Under the pieces are notes generated by a model that saw only the letters and a list, made by a program, of their open reading frames with translations, ran no database searches and was not told the DNA's origin. A DNA stretch of 64,000 nt from Candidatus Omnitrophota bacterium (GTDB lineage: Bacteria > Omnitrophota > Gorgyraeia > Ghiorseimicrobiales > Ghiorseimicrobiaceae), in the NCBI GenBank assembly GCA_030681595.1, contig JAUXSB010000061.1:69392-133391 (forward strand), given 5' to 3'. Positions 22,876 through 64,000 of the stretch are shown here, one piece after another. How positions within the stretch are numbered: the first letter of the stretch is position 1; every line of letters begins with the position of its first letter. The position numbers and the translations under genes were made by a program.

Positions 22876-23008
22876 GCGGCTTTGGCAAATTGCGCGCCAA
22901 ACCACTGCCCTCTGGCTTGCGGCTTTGGCTATGTGGAAAGCCAAACCACTGCCCTCTGGCTTGCGGCTTTGGCTATGTGGAAAGCCAAACCACTGCCCTC
23001 TGGCTTGT
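22876..23008. repeat. tandem array (about three units of 44 bp) of a palindromic element, repeat family A
   Basis: GCGGCTTTGGCTATGTGGAAAGCCAAACCACTGCCCTCTGGCTT repeated head-to-tail; the first copy is degenerate. Core hairpin GGCTTT-N10-AAAGCC. Dispersed single copies are at 39154, 41202 and 46050. Confidence 0.85.
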
Positions 23009-23183
23009 AAATTAACTAACTCGTTTTTCCGCCGAAGGCGGATCCGCCTACGGCGGAAGACACCCCCGAGGTGGCCGGAAGGACTCCTCGGGGGTGGCCC
23101 GCCCGAACGACCACTGGTCGGGCGCGGCGAAGCTTGGTTATTCGGGAAAATCGCTGAACCGGTGTCAAAAATCGGTGACACCG

Positions 23184-39153: not shown

Positions 39154-39197
39154 GGCTTTGGCTAAGCGGAAAGCCAAACCACTGCCTTACCGGCTTA
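39154..39197. repeat. repeat family A, single intergenic copy
   Basis: GGCTTTGGCTAAGCGGAAAGCCAAACCACTGCCTTACCGGCTT between etfB and atpC. It matches the 44-bp unit of the 22876-23008 array. Confidence 0.8.
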
Positions 39198-39262
39198 TAC
39201 CTTTGTTATTATTTTCACACACTTTGGTAAATTTTTAGGTATATCATATTATATTATGCTTG

Positions 39263-40934
<1,672 letters not shown>

Positions 40935-41831
40935 TTAACCTTTCAAAAGTTCCGCAGCACTTGATACTTCAATTATTTCCTTGGTAATTGAAGCCTGCCG
41001 CGCCTTATTCCTTAATAATGTAAGGCTATCAATCATGGTTTCTGCGTTATCCGTAGCCGCCTTCATCGCGATCATCCTTGCTGAGTGCTCCGAAGTAAAG
41101 GCGTTTAAAAGTATCGCGCGCATTTTGGCAGAGATGTATCTTGGGATTAAGTCTTCCAAAATCCTCTCTCTTGAAGGCTCCAAGATATATTCTATCTCTT
41201 CGGCTTTGGCTATATTGAAAGCCAAACCACTGCCCCTCTGGCTTGCGGCTTTGGCGCGTTCAATATTTAAAAATTTCTCTAACGTCGGCTTATATTTTAA
41301 GGCGGAGATAAAATGCGTATAAATAATATAAACTTCATCGGCCTCTTTTGACAAAAACAGCCGTGTAAGAGTATTTGCGATTTCATCAGAAATGTTTTTA
41401 GAAAATACCCCCTGTAAACCGACATACGAATGTAAAATATGAAAATCGCGTTTCTTAAAATAACTAAAGGCTTTCTTACCGACAGTAATAAGTTTTATTT
41501 TTTCTTTTCCTTGGCCGCGGATAAATTGCTCGCAAAGACGGATAATATTATCGTTATAGGTACTAGATAGCCCGGTATCGGAGGTAATCACACAAAGCGC
41601 AGTATTGTTTTTGGGCCTTTCCTCTAAAAACGGGTGTACCGCGACATCTATCCCGCAAAGAAGGTTTTTAAACATCGCTTCTAATTTTAGAAAATATGCG
41701 TTGCCCGCGCGTAAAACCGCCTCACTTTTTTTAAGTTTGGCACCCGAGACCATCTCCATTGCCCGCGTAATCTTCTTGGTGTTTTCTACGCTTCTAATCC
41801 TTCTTTTTATAGTCCTTAGTGATTGGAGCAT
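40935..41831 (-). CDS. atpG: F1 ATP synthase gamma subunit (carries an in-frame repeat-family-A insertion)
   Basis: 298 aa. N-terminus IKRRIRSVENTKKITRAMEMVSGAKL and C-terminus ITKEIIEVSSAAELLKG are canonical gamma. Confidence 0.85.
   Translation of the reverse strand: MLQSLRTIKRRIRSVENTKKITRAMEMVSGAKLKKSEAVLRAGNAYFLKLEAMFKNLLCGIDVAVHPFLEERPKNNTALCVITSDTGLSSTYNDNIIRLCEQFIRGQGKEKIKLITVGKKAFSYFKKRDFHILHSYVGLQGVFSKNISDEIANTLTRLFLSKEADEVYIIYTHFISALKYKPTLEKFLNIERAKAASQRGSGLAFNIAKAEEIEYILEPSRERILEDLIPRYISAKMRAILLNAFTSEHSARMIAMKAATDNAETMIDSLTLLRNKARQASITKEIIEVSSAAELLKG
41202..41257. repeat. repeat family A copy inserted in-frame inside atpG
   Basis: GGCTTTGGCTATATTGAAAGCCAAACCACTGCCCCTCTGGCTTGCGGCTTTGGCGCG. 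On the atpG strand it translates to ERAKAASQRGSGLAFNIAKAEE. Confidence 0.85.
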
Positions 41832-46049: not shown

Positions 46050-46091
46050 GGCTTTGGCTATATTGAAAGCCAAACCACTGCCTTCTCGCTT
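46050..46091. repeat. repeat family A, single intergenic copy
   Basis: GGCTTTGGCTATATTGAAAGCCAAACCACTGCCTTCTCGCTTG between nuoN and the atp operon. Confidence 0.8.
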
Positions 46092-46251
46092 GAAAGACGG
46101 CTTCCCCTTCGGGGCCGGATGCTTTTGGGCTGCGATTGCGTCGTTCGTCCTTGGCGTAGTGCATTGACTACGCCGGCGTCCTCACTCCTTATCTCGCTCC
46201 AAAATCCTTACGGCCAAAGCTTCCATTATTTATACGTAGGTCAGTTCTCAA

Positions 46252-55904: not shown

Positions 55905-55973
55905 ATGTTTGAGATGCTATTACTTCTAGAATTGCAGAAAAATCAAGCCGCTTTCTACGGCTCGTTAAAAAGA

Positions 55974-56211
55974 TGGCGGGGACGACGGGATTTTTTCTCC
56001 CCTGAACCGACATTCGTCGGCTCTCCTCCGCAACCGGCCGCCCTCGCTTGAACCAGTGGCGCTCGGGTCGGCTTCAAATCCCTGAGAAAAATCTGGCGGG
56101 GACGACGGGATTTTTGCTCCCCTGAACCGACATTCGTCGGCTCTCCTCCGCAACCGGCCGCCCTCGCTTGAACCAGTGGCGCTCGGGTCGGCTTCAAATC
56201 CCTTAAAAATA
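55974..56211. repeat. two tandem units of about 119 bp, each carrying a copy of the tRNA-Asp 3' end
   Basis: Both units begin, in plus orientation, TGGCGGGGACGACGGGATTTTT, the reverse complement of the 3' roughly 21 nt of the adjacent tRNA-Asp. The remaining roughly 97 nt are about 98% identical between units and contain a CCGACGAATGTCGG hairpin. Confidence 0.8.
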
Positions 56212-56290
56212 TGGCGGGGACGACGGGATTTGAACCCGCGGTCTTCAGATCGACAATCTGACGCGTTAAACCAGACTACGCTACGTCCCC
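56212..56290 (-). tRNA. tRNA-Asp (anticodon GTC), CCA encoded
   Basis: Minus-strand sequence GGGGACGTAGCGTAGTCTGGTTTAACGCGTCAGATTGTCGATCTGAAGACCGCGGGTTCAAATCCCGTCGTCCCCGCCA folds as a cloverleaf. The anticodon stem TCAGA/TCTGA has loop TTGTCGA, giving GTC. The T-loop is TTCAAAT. Confidence 0.85.
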
Positions 56291-56348
56291 AAAATACAGA
56301 GTGTAAATTCTATCCTAAAACTAATATTTTTTCAATAACAATTCAAGT

Positions 56349-56422
56349 GGGCGATAGAGGACTTGAACCCCTGACCCTCTGCGTGTAAAGCAGATGCTCT
56401 AACCAACTGAGCTAATCGCCCA
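56349..56422 (-). tRNA. tRNA-Val (anticodon TAC)
   Basis: Minus-strand sequence GGGCGATTAGCTCAGTTGGTTAGAGCATCTGCTTTACACGCAGAGGGTCAGGGGTTCAAGTCCTCTATCGCCCA. The anticodon stem TCTGC/GCAGA has loop TTTACAC, giving TAC. CCA is not encoded. Confidence 0.85.
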
Positions 56423-56425
56423 AAA

Positions 56426-57151
56426 CTAATTTAAGCTCTTTAAAATTCTCTGAGTGGCTAAAGACGGGTCTTTTGCTTCTAATATTGGCCTACCGACGAC
56501 AATATAGTCAGAACCGGCTTTTGCTGCATCTTGAGGTGTGGCAATACGCTTTTGATCGCCTGAATCTACGCCTTTGGGCCTTATACCGGGGCTAACCACC
56601 ACTAAATCGCTGCCAAATTTTTCGCGGATAATCCCTGCCTCTTGAACTGAAGCCACTACGCCATCTAAGCCTGCTTCTCTTGCATTGCTTGTGAAAGAAA
56701 GCACAAGAGGCAATATTGTACTATTATTGATTTGGCTTGTCAAGACTGTAACTGCAATAATTAAAGGAGGTTTTATGCCTGCTTTAGATGCCTCTAAACA
56801 AGCTGCTTCCTTTGCCCTCTGCATCATTTCTATGCCGCCTTGAGCATGCACATTAAACATAAAAATTCCTAAACTTGTGGCGGAGGAAGCGGCGCCTGCC
56901 ACGGTGTTTGGGATGTCATGGAATTTCAGATCTAAAAACACCTTCGCCCCTTTTTTATGTACCATTTCTACGGCGCCTGGTCCGTAGAGGGTAAAAAGCT
57001 GTAACCCGATTTTAAAAATCTTTACTTGGGGGTAGAGTAAATCTATGAATTTTTCCGCTTTTTTAAGGCTGTCAACATCGAGGGCAACGATTAATTCGGG
57101 TTTCGCCAGCCCGATTTCAGTCTGGCGGGGATTTCGGGATTCGGGGTTCAT
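56426..57151 (-). CDS. pyrF: orotidine 5'-phosphate decarboxylase
   Basis: 241 aa with conserved motifs: LIVALD, KIGLQLF and FLDLKFHDIPNTV. Confidence 0.85.
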   Translation of the reverse strand: MNPESRNPRQTEIGLAKPELIVALDVDSLKKAEKFIDLLYPQVKIFKIGLQLFTLYGPGAVEMVHKKGAKVFLDLKFHDIPNTVAGAASSATSLGIFMFNVHAQGGIEMMQRAKEAACLEASKAGIKPPLIIAVTVLTSQINNSTILPLVLSFTSNAREAGLDGVVASVQEAGIIREKFGSDLVVVSPGIRPKGVDSGDQKRIATPQDAAKAGSDYIVVGRPILEAKDPSLATQRILKSLN

Positions 57152-58104
57152 TGAATTTCAATACTCCCAATTAAATTTTTTATATTGGATATTTTATGCT
57201 TGCGTATATACCCTTTAATACCTTCTATAATCTCGATACTTACGCGCGGATTTATAAAATTTGCTGTGCCGACCTCAACAGCAGTTGCTCCGGCAATAAT
57301 AAACTCTAAAGCGTCCTCGGCAGTCATTATCCCGCCGATACCGATCACCGGAATTTTTACCTTTTGCGCGGCTTCCCAGACCATACGCAGGGCAATCGGT
57401 TTTATCGCAGGCCCGCTTAAACCGCCGGTAATGTTGCCTAGCTTTGGCCTTCTACTATTAACATCAATACTCATTGCCAAAAATGTGTTTACTAACGATA
57501 CGCTGTCAGCCCCGGCATCTTCTGCCGCCTTAGCAATTTCAGCTATATCCGTAACATTAGGGGTGAGCTTGGCAATGATTACCCCTTTAGTCATCTTCCG
57601 CGCGGCCTTTACAACTCCATAAGTGGCTTTTTTGTCTTGAGATATTAATTGATTATTTTTCTGGTGACTGGCCTGTGCCCGCCAGGGTATGACTGGTGAC
57701 TGGTGACTTTTTAAATTCGGGCAGGACAAATTTAATTCCACAGCCAAGACACCTGCCGCATCTAATCGTTTCGCTAGCTCCGCGTATTCCGCGGCCCGCG
57801 CGCCGGCGATGCTTGCGATTACCTGCGTTTTTAATTTTCTTAAAAAGGGGAGTTTCTCGACAATAAAATGTTTCACGCCGTCATTCTCTAAACCGATAGA
57901 ATTAAGCATTCCGGACGGCGTCTCTACTACACGGGGGGGCGCATTTCCTTGACGGGGTTCTAAAGTGATAGTTTTGCTAATAACTGCGCCTATTTTATTT
58001 AAATCAACAAAGCCTTTAAACTCTTCGGTATAACCAAAAGTTCCGGAGGCAACTAAAACCGGATTTTTAAGTTTTAGCCCCCCCAAACAAACTGCTATAC
58101 TCAT
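57148..58104 (-). CDS. pyrD: dihydroorotate dehydrogenase catalytic subunit (class 1B), with an in-frame repeat-family-B insertion
   Basis: 318 aa. Conserved regions: NPVLVASGTFGY, ELNLSCPN, NITGGLSGPAIKP and GTANF. It is co-located with pyrK. Confidence 0.85.
   Translation of the reverse strand: MSIAVCLGGLKLKNPVLVASGTFGYTEEFKGFVDLNKIGAVISKTITLEPRQGNAPPRVVETPSGMLNSIGLENDGVKHFIVEKLPFLRKLKTQVIASIAGARAAEYAELAKRLDAAGVLAVELNLSCPNLKSHQSPVIPWRAQASHQKNNQLISQDKKATYGVVKAARKMTKGVIIAKLTPNVTDIAEIAKAAEDAGADSVSLVNTFLAMSIDVNSRRPKLGNITGGLSGPAIKPIALRMVWEAAQKVKIPVIGIGGIMTAEDALEFIIAGATAVEVGTANFINPRVSIEIIEGIKGYIRKHKISNIKNLIGSIEIQ
57661..57707. repeat. repeat family B copy (47 bp) inserted in-frame inside pyrD
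   Basis: CTGGTGACTGGCCTGTGCCCGCCAGGGTATGACTGGTGACTGGTGAC encodes [16 protein letters not shown] on the pyrD strand. It is 46/47 identical to 63381-63427 inside carB. Confidence 0.9.
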
Positions 58105-58374
58105 TTAACGTACAATTATCTGCAGCATTATCACCAAAGCTAAAATAACCACGATTATGCCGATCATTTTGCTTTTCCTAGCAAGCCAATCATCGCTTTG
58201 CACTTCTTTATCTAATGCCTGCTGGATCTTCTCTAGTACAAAGAATTTCTTATTTAATGCTTCGCTTAATTTCTGTAGCGCTGCCGGCTTAAAAATAAAA
58301 ATCATGCCTAATATAAACCCCATGGCCGCGGTAATAATTGATACGGGCAGAACCAACGCTTCTAAAACATCCAT
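58105..58374 (-). CDS. small two-TM membrane protein, hypothetical
   Basis: 89 aa ORF between pyrK and pyrD with two hydrophobic helices. No recognisable family. Confidence 0.4.
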   Translation of the reverse strand: MDVLEALVLPVSIITAAMGFILGMIFIFKPAALQKLSEALNKKFFVLEKIQQALDKEVQSDDWLARKSKMIGIIVVILALVIMLQIIVR

Positions 58375-58482: not shown

Positions 58483-59364
58483 TTATGGCAATAACTCTTC
58501 CGTGTTGAATACCGGCCCTTCTTTACAGACGTATTTATAGCCGTTTTTTGTTTGAACCACACATCCAAGGCAAGCGCCAAAACCACAGGCCATATATTCT
58601 TCCAATGAAACCCACGCAGGAATATGATAACATTCCGCGAGCCTGGTGATTTCTTTTAACATCGGCTTTGGGCCGCAAGCGTAAACTACCGCCGCAGGCT
58701 GCAAGCTGCAGGCTGCAAGCTGCTTTTTATTTTTGCCTGTAGCCTGCTTGTGCCCGTAAGGGTATAGCCTGCCTGTGCCCGTAAGGGTATAGCCTGTAGC
58801 TAATATTTCTTCTAAAAGTTCAGTAATCCTTCCCTTAAAACCATGCGAGCCATCGTCTGTAGCTATTTTAACATCGCAACCGAGGTTTTTAAACTCTTTT
58901 TCGCATGAGACCTGTTCTTTTGTCCTTGCGCCGAGCAACACTGCGATCTCGAAGTTCGATATTCGAGGTTCGATGCTTCTTAGTTTCTCCGCCAGAAAAG
59001 TTAATGGAGCGACACCCATTCCCCCTGCTACTATTATCGCCCTTCGCCCTTCGCCCTTCGCCCTTCGTAAGTCAAATCCATTCCCCAGCGGGCCAATCAC
59101 ATCTAAATATTCCCCTGCTTTTTTCTTTGATAAAATCTCTGTGCCTTTACCCTTTATTTCATAAAAAATCTCTATCTCTTTGCCGATTACGCGATGGATG
59201 CTAAATGGACGCCGCAATAACGGTTCATAATCATCGCTTATTCTCGCCATTACAAACTGCCCCGGTAAAGCTTCCCCAGCAATCTTCGGCGCCTCTAACC
59301 TTATCTTAAAATACTTTTGGCCGATTTTCTTATTAGATATAATTTTAACTTTTACGCAGAACAT
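58483..59364 (-). CDS. pyrK: dihydroorotate dehydrogenase electron-transfer subunit (FAD/2Fe-2S), with in-frame repeat insertions
   Basis: 293 aa. PyrK-type N-terminus (FKIRLEAP...PGQFVMAR), RRPFSI, and the C-terminal Cys cluster ACGFGACLGCVV. Confidence 0.8.
   Translation of the reverse strand: MFCVKVKIISNKKIGQKYFKIRLEAPKIAGEALPGQFVMARISDDYEPLLRRPFSIHRVIGKEIEIFYEIKGKGTEILSKKKAGEYLDVIGPLGNGFDLRRAKGEGRRAIIVAGGMGVAPLTFLAEKLRSIEPRISNFEIAVLLGARTKEQVSCEKEFKNLGCDVKIATDDGSHGFKGRITELLEEILATGYTLTGTGRLYPYGHKQATGKNKKQLAACSLQPAAVVYACGPKPMLKEITRLAECYHIPAWVSLEEYMACGFGACLGCVVQTKNGYKYVCKEGPVFNTEELLP
58694..58800. repeat. composite repeat (family C) inserted in-frame in pyrK
   Basis: 2x GCAGGCTGCAAGCT, then a T-rich linker, then 2x AGCCTGC(C/T)TGTGCCCGTAAGGGTAT. 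It encodes ATGYTLTGTGRLYPYGHKQATGKNKKQLAACSLQPA. Its core CCTGTGCCCG..AGGGTAT is shared with family B. Confidence 0.8.
59034..59066. repeat. tandem heptanucleotide repeat (GCCCTTC x4) inside pyrK coding sequence
   Basis: CGCCCTTCGCCCTTCGCCCTTCGCCCTTCG encodes RRAKGEGRRA just before the FAD/NAD-binding AIIVAGGMG motif. Confidence 0.8.
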
Positions 59365-60034
59365 TTTCTTTCCTGCAGAATAAAATGCACAAGGTTATAA
59401 AAAATACGGCTGCCAATAAGAATTCCAGCGCTTCTTTCAAAAATTCGTTGCGCCCAAAAATCCTGATATCCTGCCAAGTTTCCAGCGCGATTATAATTAT
59501 AGACACCGCGATTAACGAAGACAGCTCTTTTTTAACCCAAGCCCACTTAAAAAACAAATAATCCCTGGGGTTTACTCTAAAGAAATTTTTATTAGGAAAA
59601 TATTTTGGCGTTTTTCTACAATAAGCCTTGTATTCTTCGCCGAAAAGCTGTAAAAGGCTATTTTCTTCTTTACGCACCTGCGGAGTATATATTACTAAAA
59701 AAATAAGTAGAAAGACTAAAAACGCCCACCACTGAAAAAGGATACTGACAGTCCCTAAACCAATCAACAAAGTCCCGAAATACATCGGGTGCCTAACTAA
59801 GCCATAAAGGCCGTCCAACATTAGGCTCCTTCCATTCCAAGATTTTTCTGACTTATACCCTCTTGCAACGACGCGAATCAAAAAACCAAATAAAAGCACA
59901 AATATTCCCAATATATCTAAAAATTCGTCTGCCGCTTCTCCCTTCCATCGTGGAAATAAAAACTTAGATAGGAACACCGCTGTCAAAACAGCCAAAAAAA
60001 TAGATATGCCTTGAGTTCTTATTCGTGGCTTCAC
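59345..60034 (-). CDS. isoprenylcysteine carboxyl methyltransferase (ICMT)/phospholipid methyltransferase family membrane protein
   Basis: 229 aa polytopic protein. LVRHPMYFGTLLIGLG is the ICMT/PEMT family motif. Confidence 0.65.
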   Translation of the reverse strand: MKPRIRTQGISIFLAVLTAVFLSKFLFPRWKGEAADEFLDILGIFVLLFGFLIRVVARGYKSEKSWNGRSLMLDGLYGLVRHPMYFGTLLIGLGTVSILFQWWAFLVFLLIFLVIYTPQVRKEENSLLQLFGEEYKAYCRKTPKYFPNKNFFRVNPRDYLFFKWAWVKKELSSLIAVSIIIIALETWQDIRIFGRNEFLKEALEFLLAAVFFITLCILFCRKENVLRKS

Positions 60035-60065
60035 ACCGTCATTCCTTTATTGTATTCACCTGCTA

Positions 60066-60866
60066 TTATTTTTGACATTTCGGACAAAAATATGTACCGC
60101 GCCCACCTAAGGCTATCCTTTTAACCAAAGCTTTGCAAACCAAACACGGTTTGCCCTCACGGCCATAAACCTTATGAAATTTTACATAGCCGCCGGGTTG
60201 TCCGGATACCTGCACATATTGATCAACCGAAGAACCTTTATGTTTTATCGCTTCTTTCAGCGTATCTTTTATTTCTTTAAAAAGCAGTGCTTTCTCTTTA
60301 TCGGATAAACTATTTGCTGCGCGTTCCGGATGAATTTTTGCCCGGAATAACGCCTCAGCCGCATAGATGTTACCGATTCCGGAAATAAATGTCTGATCCA
60401 TGATCAACGGCTTGATTTTAGTTTTTTTCGCTGAAAGCATTTCTTTAAATTGGCGCGCGGTTATATCAAACGGCTCAGGCCCAAGCCCCTGAACAAATTT
60501 TAACGCGCGCCAATCATCTATTAGCCGCAGTTCCGCAAAGAGCCGCTGGTCATTAAAATCAAGATTTTTACCGTCTGATAAATGAAAACTAACCCTTGTG
60601 GATTGTCCGCTCCCCGGATAAACTAACTGCCCGGTCATTTTTAAATGAATTGCCAATGATTTCCCGTTAGATAATTCTAGAATCAAAAGCTTTGCGCGAC
60701 GTAAGATATTTTTTATCGTTAAACCGGACAGCTCTTTTTTAAATTTATCCGGCGATGGCTCACGAATTACCTTAGGATTATGCACAGTTACACCTGTGAT
60801 TTTTTTACCTAGCGCTACCTTCTCTAGCTCGCGCTTTATTATCTCTACTTCTGGTAGTTCCGGCAA
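60066..60866 (-). CDS. mutM: formamidopyrimidine-DNA glycosylase (Fpg/MutM)
   Basis: 266 aa. N-terminal MPELPEVE (catalytic Pro2/Glu3) and a C-terminal zinc finger (CLVCKALVKRIALGGRGTYFCPKCQ). Confidence 0.9.
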   Translation of the reverse strand: MPELPEVEIIKRELEKVALGKKITGVTVHNPKVIREPSPDKFKKELSGLTIKNILRRAKLLILELSNGKSLAIHLKMTGQLVYPGSGQSTRVSFHLSDGKNLDFNDQRLFAELRLIDDWRALKFVQGLGPEPFDITARQFKEMLSAKKTKIKPLIMDQTFISGIGNIYAAEALFRAKIHPERAANSLSDKEKALLFKEIKDTLKEAIKHKGSSVDQYVQVSGQPGGYVKFHKVYGREGKPCLVCKALVKRIALGGRGTYFCPKCQK

Positions 60867-60904
60867 TTTCTTATCTCCTTTTACTATCCGCTATACGCTA
60901 AACG

Positions 60905-61300
60905 CTATCCGCTGATAATTTTCACCCAAACTTCTCTTGACCTTGGGCCGTCGCCTTCACAAAAATATATCCCCTGCCAAGCTCCTAAAGCAAGACGGCC
61001 ATCTTCAATAAAAACATTTAGCGACTGACCGAATAAAGACGACTTTATATGGGCATCCGAATTTCCTTCGCCGTGAGAATAACCCGCGTTTTCTGGAATA
61101 AGTTTATTTAAGCTATTGATAATATCCTTTTGCACTGAAGGGTCGGCATTTTCATTAATCGCGAGGCCTGCGGTCGTATGCGGGCAAAAGATAAAACAGA
61201 CACCGTCTTTAATGCTACTTTTAGAAACTGCTGCTTCTATTTTATCCGTAATATCCACCAACTCAACCCGGCTGTTTGTCTTTATTTTAATTTTTTCCAT
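60905..61300 (-). CDS. yjbQ: YjbQ/UPF0047 family protein (secondary thiamine-phosphate synthase-like)
   Basis: 131 aa. The motifs [18 protein letters not shown] and [10 protein letters not shown] are diagnostic of YjbQ. Confidence 0.8.
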
Positions 61301-64000
61301 ATTTGTTACTTTTATTTTTGCATTTCTTAGCTCTTAGCTCTTCATTCTTAGTTCTGCTTTTATGGTATTCTTGCAATGACTTAACTTCTAATTTTTCTTT
61401 TAGTAAAGTTTCAATCCCTGTAACTGATGCCTGTGCTCCCGGTATAGTGGTGATACAAGGCACCTGATGCATTATCGCGTAAGAGCGGATTTTTACCTCG
61501 TCAGCGCGAGGGATTCTACCCGAAGGTGTATTAATAATCAATTTTATCTTATTTTCTTTTAATAAATCCAAGGTGTTCGGCGAGCCTTCGCCAAGTTTTT
61601 TAATTAAGCCTACGGGGATTTTATTCTCGGATAAAAATTTATGCGTGCCGAAGCTCGCAACAATTTTAAATCCGAATCCGCGTAATTTTCTGACAACCCC
61701 GATAAGCACCTCTGTCTTATCGCTATCCTTGACACTAATAAAAACCAGCCCTTTAACGGGCAAATTCTGCCCGGCAGCCAGCTGGCTTTTTAAAAATGCC
61801 CTGCCAAAATCTTTATCAATACCCATTACCTCACCGGTAGATTTCATCTCCGGCCCCAACATAATATCCACTCCCGGAAAACGGCTAAAAGGAAATACGG
61901 ATTCTTTAACACAGGAATATTTCGGAATAATTTCTTTGGTAAATCCTAACTTTTTAAGCTTTGCCCCAGCCATTACTTTGGCAGCGAGTTTTGCCAAGGG
62001 CACGCCTATTGCCTTTGAAACAAATGGTACTGTGCGCGAGGCACGCGGGTTAACCTCCAAGATATATAATCTATCGCCTTTTACCGCGTATTGCGCGTTC
62101 ATTAAGCCGATAACATTTAACTCTCTGGCCATGGCAACACTTGCCTGCCTAATTTCATTAATCATTTTTTCTGACAAGCTGTGCGGCGGAAGCACCATTG
62201 CCGCATCTCCTGAATGTACTCCAGCCTCCTCAATATGCTCTAAGATTCCGCCTACGACAAAAGTTTGGCCGTCGGCAATCATATCCACATCCACCTCTAT
62301 GGCGTCTTCTAAAAACTTATCTATTAAAACCGGATGCTCGCCGGATACGGAAATCGCTTCCTTAATATATTTCTCCAAAATATTTTCCGCATAAACAATC
62401 TCCATTGCCCGGCCGCCTAAAACATATGATGGCCTGACTAAAACCGGATACCCTATGCGCTGTGCCACTTTTTTTGCTTCTTCCAACGTAAATGCCGTGC
62501 CGTTTTCCGGTTGCGCAAGCTTTAGCTTATTTAAAAACTGCTTAAATTTTTCCCGGTCTTCAGCGATATCTATGGATTTGGGACTAGTGCCGATAATCTT
62601 AACCCCTGCCTTTTCTAAAGCAAGTGCTAAATTTAACGGGGTCTGTCCCCCAAACTGCACAATTACCCCATCAGGTTTTTCCTTATCACAAATATTTAAA
62701 ACATCTTCCAAGGTAAGCGGCTCAAAATATAATTTATCTGAAGTATCATAATCAGTAGATACTGTTTCAGGATTAGAATTTACCATGATAGTTTCAAAAC
62801 CGTCTTCTTTTAGCGCAAAAGAAGCGTGCACACAACAATAATCAAACTCAATACCCTGCCCAATACGATTTGGCCCGCCGCCTAAGATCATTATTTTCTT
62901 CTTTGTGGATATGCGCGCCTCATCTTCTCTTTCATAAGTTGAATAAAAATAAGGCGTATAGGCCTCAAATTCCGCGGCACAAGTATCTACCAACTTATAA
63001 CTTGCCGTGATATTAAGCGTTTTCCTTAAAGTGCGGATTGCTTGTTCGTCGCTTGCCAAAAATTCCGCCAATTGCTTATCGGAAAAACCAAACTGTTTGG
63101 CTTTGAGTAACAACTCCGGCTTCAGATTACAAGCTTCAGGCTGCAGGCTTTTAACTTCTTTATTTTCAGCTTGTGGCTTGCAGCTTGCCTGCCCCGAAGA
63201 AAGCGGGGCAGCTTGCAGCTTAATTTCTTTCTCCAAATCAACAATCTCTTTTATATTCTGTAAAAACCATCTGTCTATCTTACTTAAACTGTATATTTCC
63301 TCAATTTCCATTCCTGCGCGTAAAGCATCTCCAATATAGAAAACTCTTTCCGCTGTAGGCACCCTCAATCTTTCTTTTAACTGGTGACTGGCCTGTACCC
63401 GCCAGGGTATGACTGGTGACTGGTGACTAATAGTTTCTAAACCGCTCTTTTTTATTTCCAAACCTCGTAAACCTTTTTGCAAAGCCTCTTTAAATGTGCG
63501 GCCAATGCTCATTGTCTCACCCACAGACTTCATTGAGGTACCTAATACCGGGCTTGAGCCGGGGAATTTCTCAAAGGTAAAACGCGGAATTTTAACCACG
63601 CAATAATCTATTGTTGGCTCAAAACAAGCCGGCGTCTCTTTCGTAATATCATTAGGAATTTCATCCAAAGTATAACCGACCGCAAGTTTTGCCGCGATTT
63701 TGGCAATAGGAAAACCTGTGGCTTTAGAAGCAAGGGCGGATGAGCGCGAAACACGCGGATTTAGCTCAATTACTACCATCCGTCCAGTATCCGGATGCAC
63801 CGCAAACTGGATATTGGAGCCGCCGGTTTCCACGCCGATTTCGCGCATTGCCTTAATTGAGGCATCACGCATAAGCTGATATTCACGGTCGGTTAAGGTC
63901 TGGGCCGGAGCTACTGTGATAGAATCACCGGTATGCACCCCCATAGGGTCAAAATTTTCAATAGAACAGACAATCACTACATTATCTTTTCTATCGCGCA
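61287..64000 (-). CDS. carB: carbamoyl-phosphate synthase large subunit (partial; N-terminus lies beyond the window), with two in-frame repeat insertions
   Basis: Two ATP-grasp CPSase halves, an oligomerisation linker ([17 protein letters not shown]) and a C-terminal MGS-like domain. The ORF stays open to the window edge. Confidence 0.85.
63143..63232. repeat. family-C-like palindromic repeat inserted in-frame in the carB linker region
   Basis: GCTTCAGGCTGCAGGCTT, then a T-rich linker, then CAGCTTGCCTGCCCCGAAGAAAGCGGGGCAGCTTGCAGCTT (an 8-bp-stem hairpin). It encodes [29 protein letters not shown]. Its GCAGGCTGCAAGCT-like motifs are shared with the pyrK insertion. Confidence 0.75.
63381..63427. 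repeat. repeat family B copy (47 bp) inserted in-frame inside carB
   Basis: CTGGTGACTGGCCTGTACCCGCCAGGGTATGACTGGTGACTGGTGAC encodes [16 protein letters not shown]. It is 46/47 identical to the pyrD copy. Confidence 0.9.

Follow-up and report, generated by a model that had tools for sequence, protein, structure and literature searches.

In-frame heptanucleotide repeat arrays build variable loops in pyrimidine biosynthesis enzymes of Omnitrophota

In a 64,000-nt stretch of a Candidatus Omnitrophota genome (assembly GCA_030681595.1, contig JAUXSB010000061.1, positions 69,392 to 133,391 of the forward strand; hereafter the window), we found that the pyrimidine biosynthesis (pyr) genes pyrK, pyrD, pyrF and carB carry extra in-frame codons that are translated DNA repeats: tandem arrays of 7-nt units, short hairpin cores set into these arrays, and second arrays in inverted orientation. 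We consider it somewhat probable that the extra residues arose through replication slippage and template switching together with the copying of some modules, the products being filtered by translation. A preliminary description, made from the sequence alone, had taken the segments in pyrK and carB for insertions of a discrete third repeat family (family C), related to family B. All genes of the pyr region (window 56426 to end) are on the minus strand, and an NCBI Candidatus Omnitrophota protein matches the window PyrK at 100% identity. There are at least nine repeat features in the window, eight within pyrF, pyrD, pyrK or carB and one across the yjbQ stop codon, built from at least seven distinct heptamer units (Table 1); pyrK alone holds three repeat-built loops.

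At site D of pyrK, the coding strand reads in full GCTACAG GCTA(TACCCTTACGGGCACAGG)CAG GCTA(TACCCTTACGGGCACAAG)CAG GCTACAG GC - AAAAATAAAAA - GCAGCTT GCAGCCT GCAGCTT GCAGCCT GC, that is, a left array of GCTACAG (4.3 units, 58736-58800) interrupted by two 18-nt cores, an A-rich spacer AAAAATAAAAA (about 58724-58735) and an inverted array of GCAGCYT (about 4.5 units, 58691-58723). The motif GCAGGCTGCAAGCT, exact at 58694 and 58708, consists of two units of a 7-nt array; with up to two mismatches it has five matches in the window against 0.43 expected, all in pyrK 58694-58721 or carB 63136-63188, the inexact ones in pyrK falling within 58701-58714. The core CCTGTGCCCGTAAGGGTAT, allowing three mismatches, has four (57672, 58747, 58772 and 63392) against 0.01 expected. 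The modules thus lie where they had first been placed, and their in-frame translation, ...ATGYTLTGTGRLYPYGHKQATGKNKKQLAACSLQPAAVVYACGP, had been read correctly. Tandem Repeats Finder reported 58694-58723 as period 7/14 and 58740-58796 as 2.3 copies of period 25. The 25-nt module is nevertheless not a unit of its own, as had been assumed: removal of both cores leaves a perfect 4.3-unit array, identical to the array of another locus (L085), so that the module is one 18-nt core plus one 7-nt host unit and the cores are clean insertions. Copy 2 is an exact 18-nt insertion in the same host-unit phase as copy 1; on the plus strand it reads CTTGTGCCCGTAAGGGTA, with the stem GUGCCC/GGGUA(U) and the loop GTAA. 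Since pyrD, carB and pyrK have this 18-nt core in common, families B and C are modular variants of one element type, as the preliminary description had proposed.

Alignment of orthologues bore out the extra length of both PyrK and CarB. PyrK residues 188-225 are unmatched in the solved Lactococcus PyrK (5ksw_B), which has 5 residues there, for a net gain of 33 aa, and the insertion relative to L081, the closest relative, is 27 aa. The site D composite is present in the window and absent from its nearest relatives, L081 and P0004. In an AlphaFold2 model, residues 193-220 have a predicted local distance difference test score (pLDDT) below 50, and the loop joins a helix (180-191) to a strand (225-230). 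Many orthologues have an insert at the identical place: loop D is 14-15 aa long in 64 of 101 PyrK homologues and 27-31 aa in 20 of the 101, and the 43 aa of the window loop equal 31 plus two 6-aa cores. The perfect array at site B lies between the GNGF and VAGGMG motifs, a position taken by GTATCCC x 4 in L081, CTACGAG x 4 in L083, and ATTACCG units with a 21-nt hairpin in L085. Site C arrays, degenerate in the window, were also found in eleven other Omnitrophota pyrK genes.

carB contains three repeat-built segments rather than the two insertions first described. On the coding strand, the linker composite runs from AAGCTGC x 2 through a 21-nt hairpin, CCCGCTTTCTTCGGGGCAGGC (63187-63207), three further units and an A-rich spacer to an inverted array of AGCCTGC/AGCYTGN. 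CarB residues 253-283 stand opposite 6 residues of E. coli CarB, a gain of 25 aa, and the gain over L081 is likewise 25 aa, so that of the two earlier estimates, about 30 aa was nearer than about 16 aa. The segment lies inside the oligomerisation domain, which connects the two synthetase halves, and breaks the Pfam CPSase_L_D3 match at profile position 55; at this place L081 has a simple array of GTTCCCC and L005 one of ACAGATG. At carB site 1 there is no repeat in L081 and a different array, AAATCCG x 4.4, in L005; the window sequence matches the 48-nt pyrD module with 94% identity across 53 nt. The C-terminal tail exceeds that of L081 by 21 aa, and tail arrays also occur in L001, L002, L004, L083 and L085. 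The pyrD module itself encodes a 16-residue insert in the active-site loop, directly after the catalytic-loop motif SCPNLK, and is present at the same site in pyrD of a relative (L193). PyrF is 8 aa longer than in L081, where the corresponding array is unbroken (GAAACCC x 4). The CTATACG array at yjbQ is the only one in the window outside a pyr gene.

Table 1. Genes and repeat features of the pyr region, in window coordinates
Feature	Position	Strand	Details
pyrF	56426-57151	-	
pyrF N-terminus array, GAAACCC-type	57095-57149	-	interrupted by 22-nt hairpin GCCAGACTGAAATCGGGCTGGC (57105-57126)
pyrD	57148-58104	-	
pyrD module (family B)	57661-57708	-	4.3-unit AGTCACC array plus one core (57672-57689)
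89-aa membrane protein gene	58105-58374	-	
pyrK	58483-59364	-	electron-transfer subunit of dihydroorotate dehydrogenase B, 293 aa; Pfam PF10418 and PF00175; PDB 5ksw_B E=1.4e-34
pyrK site D composite	58691-58800	-	directly before VYACGP; two inverted heptamer arrays, spacer, two cores
18-nt hairpin core copy 2, pyrK	58747-58764	+	coding strand TACCCTTACGGGCACAAG
18-nt hairpin core copy 1, pyrK	58772-58789	+	
pyrK site C degenerate array	58944-58977	-	coding AGCATCG AACCTCG AATATCG AACTTCG; peptide SIEPRISNFE
pyrK site B array	59037-59067	-	TCGCCCT x 4.4, perfect; coding strand CGAAGGG; peptide RRAKGEGRRA
PEMT/ICMT-like methyltransferase gene	59345-60034	-	
fpg	60066-60866	-	
yjbQ-fpg array	60884-60915		CTATACG x 4.3; across yjbQ stop codon and yjbQ-fpg spacer
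yjbQ (UPF0047)	60905-61300	-	
carB	61287 to window end	-	
carB C-terminal tail array	61320-61355	-	TTCTTAG, 4.6 units, imperfect
carB linker composite	63118-63221	-	inverted-array architecture as in pyrK, different 21-nt hairpin
carB site 1, copy of pyrD module	63381-63428	-	core 63392-63409; 16 aa at oligomerisation-domain start

The period of these arrays stands out from all others. In a simple self-match count per period, the window had five arrays of period 7 and two of period 4, and periods 5, 6 and 8-12 gave none. For comparison at the DNA level we used 80 GTDB species loci, 69 from Omnitrophota (945 kb) and 11 from other phyla (168 kb), and counted arrays with at least 14 self-matching positions at periods 3 to 12. 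The Omnitrophota loci contained 55 period-7 arrays, compared with 0-3 for each other period, and the loci of other phyla contained one array; head-to-tail 7-nt copies are thus in excess of other periods and of chance. Array length has its mode at 30-33 nt (about 4.3-4.7 units), and 61 of 67 arrays lie within long open frames, so with the number of different units in the window the arrays do not resemble a set of few characteristic units located mainly between genes. By gene, 43 arrays fell in 53.8 kb of pyrK, five each in 56 kb of pyrD and 88 kb of carB, none in 36 kb of pyrF and two in the 710 kb of all other DNA, which makes the density per kb in pyrK about 300 times that of non-pyr DNA.

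The positions of the arrays recur across the phylum, and their sequences do not. At least one array was present in 32 of 72 Omnitrophota pyrK genes and in 0 of 11 from other phyla; the pyrK arrays gather at four alignment positions, those of pyrD directly after SCPN[IL]K, and those of carB in relatives at the three places that also hold them in the window. Most Omnitrophota have about 4.5 heptamer copies in the loop before YACGP, with a species-specific unit (CTATCGA, CTACGAA, GAAACCC, CTTACAA, GTCAACT, GCCATTA and others), and in L018, L005 and L021 units are common to several pyr genes of one genome. Distances between units are nearly independent of PyrK identity, and a vertical signal in the unit sequences was ruled out on this basis. 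The preliminary description had reasoned that protein-level conservation with divergent nucleotides would point to lineage-specific loops. The pattern is the reverse: position and length are conserved, and neither the nucleotide nor the peptide sequence is. The notion of a discrete third family is also not supported, given that the sites were already array-bearing, with arrays at the same positions in L081 and phylum-wide. Separately, Omnitrophota-type PyrK or PyrD proteins were encoded in metagenome-assembled genomes with other labels (L066 and L071, Clostridia; L006, L014, L018 and others, Planctomycetales), and the extended PyrD loop is present in L066 and L071; these labels are probably binning or naming artefacts.

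The arrays are compatible with translation despite a period that is no multiple of three. Because three units make 21 nt, or seven codons, each unit is read in all three frames, as in the peptide ATGYRLQATG, and loop lengths step by about 7 aa (three units): PyrD loops fall into classes of 31-32, 38-40 and 44-55 aa, and L007 has 1.6 units at a site where L050 has 4.6. Among 55 units of pyrK arrays, read in every cyclic frame, five contain a stop codon on the sense strand, compared with 23 on the antisense strand and a mean of 14 (minimum 7) in 1000 composition-matched shuffles. The A+C content of the sense strand is 64% in the arrays vs 48% in the gene background, and the peptides are hydrophilic, rich in Thr, Pro, Lys, Arg and Ser. 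The 86 loci surveyed (consensus assemblies) contained no frameshifted pyrK, pyrD, carB or pyrF, and phase variation was rejected on that account. An assembly artefact was also rejected, the arrays being far shorter than reads or k-mers and identical in independent assemblies, which agreed at 100% identity across 20.9 kb. Contig pairs with identical PyrK were identical or differed by one substitution, with no indel, and are uninformative on population polymorphism.

Comparison with L081 (PyrK 74% and CarB 90% identical, fully syntenic with the window) placed the additions in time. Twelve non-pyr genes (2,816 aa) showed no internal indel between the two, as opposed to seven indels in the four pyr genes, every one of them an excess in the window, for 104 extra aa in total. 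Plain arrays are nevertheless present in L081 at all three pyrK sites (B, C and D), as well as in pyrD, in the carB linker and at the N-terminus of pyrF, so the arrays predate the split of the two lineages. As far as sequence comparison can tell, the window lineage then acquired cores, hairpins and an inverted arm, and its carB received a copy of the 48-nt pyrD module. The earlier idea of repeat insertions therefore holds in that DNA repeats make up the extra residues and L081 is without the extensions, and fails in that no discrete element entered a naive site. The window and L081 have an identity of only 0.53 at 4-fold degenerate sites; full turnover of units thus requires no special process or rate, and faster-than-neutral replacement was dropped as an explanation. 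One gene departs from this background: pyrD (window 57148-58104 vs L081 11169-12092) has a 4-fold identity of 0.73 vs 0.38-0.53 in neighbour genes, a possible sign that the lineages recently exchanged pyrD or that its codons are under unusual constraint.

The core sequence is CYTGTGCCCGNNAGGGTA(T), and neither a GTAG nor a CGTC tag is present in it. By inspection it could fold into a stem of 6 bp, two of them G.T pairs, closed by a GNNA loop, although the modules folded no better than shuffles (z -0.2 to -0.9). The inverted arrays together form a quasi-palindrome of about 70 nt. Folding of four modules on both DNA strands was not significantly more stable than that of shuffles (z -0.2 to -1.8) and did not mark the modules as thermodynamic outliers. 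The inverted arms are heptamer arrays that are 68-78% complementary. Protein alignment alone had suggested co-variation between arms, but in eight species arm complementarity was 0.73 within species vs 0.66 +/- 0.11 across species and the partner from the same species was rarely the best match, and a selected hairpin with compensatory changes was rejected. Target-site duplications were absent from the flanks of composites and cores. Rfam matched only tRNAs, whether in the window or in 18 loci that bear the core, so a known RNA family was rejected. A query of concatenated composite peptides for host genes gave no match at E <= 10. A second core type of 21 nt (e.g. CCTGTCTGCCGGCAGGCAGGG), translated PVCRQAG, PACRTGR or LPAGRQAG, occurs within PyrK heptamer arrays of other Omnitrophota (L085 site B; P0008, P0026, P0028, P0042, P0061 and P0100).

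A metagenome scan for the core hit at least 120 contigs, with 117 distinct matches listed, roughly the same order as expected by chance for a pattern of this size. Of the matches listed, 32 stood in a diagnostic context: 10 lay inside another copy, 5 were arranged in tandem, 4 fell within heptamer arrays, and 13 sat at the tips of unrelated stems of 6 bp or more. Stems of 9 bp or longer flanked 8 of the 117, vs 2 of 585 controls. Dispersed copies of about 20 nt, nested in each other and in other repeats, are thus found in this set. In L162, a composite like that of the window is found at the C-terminal end of a TsaD-like protein, so the modules also occur outside pyr genes. Other in-frame composite or core modules in non-pyr genes were seen in a membrane protein of L160 (Lnt-like by eye) and in a 1158-aa membrane protein of L204; the module peptides of these three proteins include …AASHKPQASRQKIKNKKPTACGLQPAA… and …YPGGHRRVIPWRAQAG…. 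A conserved context, gccttggtcccccacNNN-CORE-ggggcggaggggc, recurred in L102, L109, L111, L157, L181, L189 and L202, in the last case downstream of a tRNA gene and with no Rfam match, and may be an undescribed structured element or terminator. An open reading frame (ORF) resembling a Y1 transposase of the IS200 or RAYT kind (RAYT, REP-associated tyrosine transposase; REP, repetitive extragenic palindromic element) was called by eye from motifs (…YPHHIVQRGNNRQ…) at L043 1335-2018, 1.3 kb from pyrK, and is a possible candidate for an enzyme that mobilises the hairpin modules. No homologue of it was found in the window, and no transposase was detected in the 64 kb by tblastn with this ORF.

We infer slippage and template switching, neutrality of the repeats and mobility of the cores from these patterns. 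In the explanation that we favor, three layers are superimposed: heptamer arrays of about 4.3-4.7 units (30-33 nt) at a few fixed loop positions of pyrK, pyrD, pyrF and carB; GC-rich hairpin cores of 18-21 nt, with lengths that are multiples of three, cleanly inserted into these arrays; and a second, inverted array beyond an A-rich spacer. Replication slippage or out-of-register repair would create the arrays and keep them homogeneous, strand-switching would create the inverted copies, and cores as well as whole array-plus-core modules would be copied from site to site. Selection would then purge products that are not a multiple of three, contain stops or are incompatible with a loop, so that hydrophilic loops remain; such a filter would account for the steps of 21 nt, the A+C richness of the coding strand and the location of the repeats in disordered loops. 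The repeats would on this account be tolerated passengers. Several observations weigh against it. Neutral slippage does not predict the roughly 300-fold concentration in pyrK or the array-free fpg, yjbQ and methyltransferase genes within the same cluster; it leaves the restriction to pyr genes unexplained, and the concentration would need an old founding event with long persistence, or some bias. A one-step gain of three units from a site with 1.x units has no established mechanism, and single-unit steps pass through frameshifts. The many perfect arrays, at a divergence where neutral sites are near saturation, imply that homogenisation would have to be ongoing. Finally, no transposase accompanies the presumed copying in the window, and 85 of the 117 core matches listed lack a diagnostic context and may be chance.

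The alternative closest to the preliminary description, in which discrete miniature transposable elements, REP/RAYT-like or similar to miniature inverted-repeat transposable elements (MITEs), were put into pyrK and carB by a transposase, is in our judgment unlikely. It would fit the near-identical 48-53-nt module in pyrD and carB, the empty carB site 1 of L081, the occurrence of the core in many metagenome contigs (among the matches listed), nested in itself and in tandem, the strand specificity that G.T pairs give the core, as for REPs, and the transposase-like ORF near pyrK in L043; in-frame insertions of REPs and Rickettsia palindromic elements (RPEs) are also documented in other bacteria (PMC3733652). 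It is harder to reconcile with exact 18-nt insertions that left no target-site duplication, the tagless core, the window's lack of a transposase, arms that are species-variable heptamer arrays without co-variation, sites that carried arrays before the additions, and the confinement of every window copy to the pyr cluster. That the arrays serve the pyrimidine genes, through programmed mutability, an RNA or DNA signal (e.g. for cold-shock-type proteins) or the tuning of loops by catalytic and cofactor motifs, we regard as improbable. The density in pyrK, the enrichment of pyrD and carB as well, the unaffected non-pyr genes of the cluster, the phylum-wide fixed sites beside SCPN (PyrD) and GNGF/AGGxG and YACGP (PyrK), the persistence of many perfect arrays despite saturated neutral divergence and the reported binding of CspB to heptamer repeats (PMC4679880) are what such a role would lead one to expect; unconserved units and peptides, the arms' failure to co-vary, folding not clearly above shuffles, the consistent reading frame in the 86 loci, the decay of arrays in 40 of 72 pyrK genes and the lack of an Rfam match are not. 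Ordinary lineage-specific loops under protein-level selection, with the DNA repetition incidental, would explain why many relatives keep the position and length of the loops, and why these are hydrophilic, with predicted disorder. This reading is scarcely credible given perfect tandem repeats of a period senseless for codons, wholly different peptides at one site between species, identical nucleotide modules in unrelated proteins, and an enrichment of period 7 alone, which already contradicts it. A bolder proposal, to which we give little credence, is that self-renewing heptamer arrays are kept in pyr genes (pyrK far above pyrD and carB, and the pyrF start) by a targeted process or function and not by accident and tolerance; that process could be gene-directed repeat generation, or nucleic-acid-level or mutability-based control of the pathway.

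Observations on the surroundings of the pyr genes are given here for completeness. The order carB, yjbQ, fpg, PEMT-like methyltransferase gene, pyrK is kept in the window, L081, L083, L085, L207, L208, L210 and L211, with two unannotated ORFs in place of the methyltransferase gene in L208; Fpg is exactly 266 aa in all eight loci, and the flanking pyr genes vary in length. Upstream of carA, L085 and L086 (1-2223) encode a MJ0043_C-domain protein with a weak Intein_splicing match; at 825 aa (cut by the locus end), it is double the length of its 412-aa counterparts in L081 and L083. The nuoA-pyrF interval of the window has minus-strand tRNA genes at 56215-56290 and 56348-56421 and a 120-nt tandem repeat (55967-56231, 2.2 copies, 95% identical), each copy of which opens with the 29-nt stretch TTAAAAAGATGGCGGGGACGACGGGATTT; a third copy of this stretch (56203-56231) overlaps the low-coordinate end of the first tRNA gene, and the repeat looks like duplicated tRNA-end fragments of the kind left by integrating elements. 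A separate family of 44-46-nt repeats (GGCTTTGGCTATGTGGAAAGCCAAACCACTGCCCTCTGGCTTG...), with its own hairpin (GGCTTTGGC...GCCAAA), has three tandem and three dispersed copies (22877-23010, 39154-39199, 41202-41247 and 46050-46095), one of them within a 298-aa ORF (40935-41831).

Microsatellites whose unit is not a triplet would be expected to disappear from essential coding sequence. Yet core enzymes throughout a phylum carry in-frame 7-nt arrays, with one in the PyrD catalytic loop; their positions are fixed while the sequences turn over, and small hairpin modules accumulate within them. Omnitrophota thus offer a natural system for the birth of new protein loops directly from DNA-repeat dynamics, for array homogeneity without loss of the reading frame, and for a roughly 300-fold bias to the genes of one pathway over their neighbours, and they hold a warning for annotation and for alignment-based phylogeny of their proteins.

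Contingency loci, as in Neisseria and Haemophilus, show alleles that are out of frame and a copy number that varies, and their genes are usually surface or modification genes. The Omnitrophota arrays are likewise non-triplet tandem repeats inside an ORF, but they keep to about 4.5 copies with little variation, the 86 loci gave no out-of-frame allele, and their hosts are core biosynthetic enzymes. Small dispersed repeats (SDRs), reportedly described by Elhai and colleagues in 2008, are said to be mobile repeats of 21-27 nt in Nostoc and Anabaena that form hairpins and are nested, in a heptamer-rich genome. By that account, both have hairpin modules of about 20 nt that sit within each other and within other repeats; the Omnitrophota modules differ in phylum, in lying within coding sequence and in having lengths that are multiples of three. 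MITEs have terminal inverted repeats and a target-site duplication, unlike the Omnitrophota modules, with arms of 68-78% complementarity and no duplication. RPEs and REP elements within genes (Di Nocera et al. 2013; PMC3733652) resemble them as small palindromes in-frame in conserved genes, apparently translated and with G.T stem pairs. RPEs are, however, a family of 100-150 bp with a defined consensus, in contrast to heptamer-built modules of 18-110 nt; REPs have a GTAG/CGTC tag and are associated with RAYTs, whereas the Omnitrophota core has no such tag; and both occur in varied host genes without heptamer arrays, in contrast to repeats found mostly in one pathway. Tandem 7-nt repeats are known from Xanthomonas (GGGAATC) and Nostoc (GGGGAYT; PMC4692102) and from Beggiatoaceae and cyanobacteria (TAACTGA; PMC4679880), with a survey of long simple-sequence repeats (LSSRs) by Mrazek et al. 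2007, as cited in both papers. These bacterial heptamer repeats, including the short tandemly repeated repetitive (STRR) sequences of cyanobacteria, form short arrays, four units being commonest in Xanthomonas, and slippage has been proposed for them (PMC4692102, PMC4679880). The Omnitrophota arrays are like them in the over-represented 7-nt period, the short arrays and the occasional inverted pairs. LSSR and STRR repeats are mostly intergenic, with one or few units per genome, whereas the Omnitrophota arrays are in-frame in conserved enzymes, at fixed codon positions phylum-wide, concentrated in the genes of one pathway, with units that vary by site and species. The nearest known kinds are therefore the bacterial heptanucleotide repeats, in-frame REP and RPE insertions and, by their reported description, SDRs, and the Omnitrophota arrays are a variant of these.

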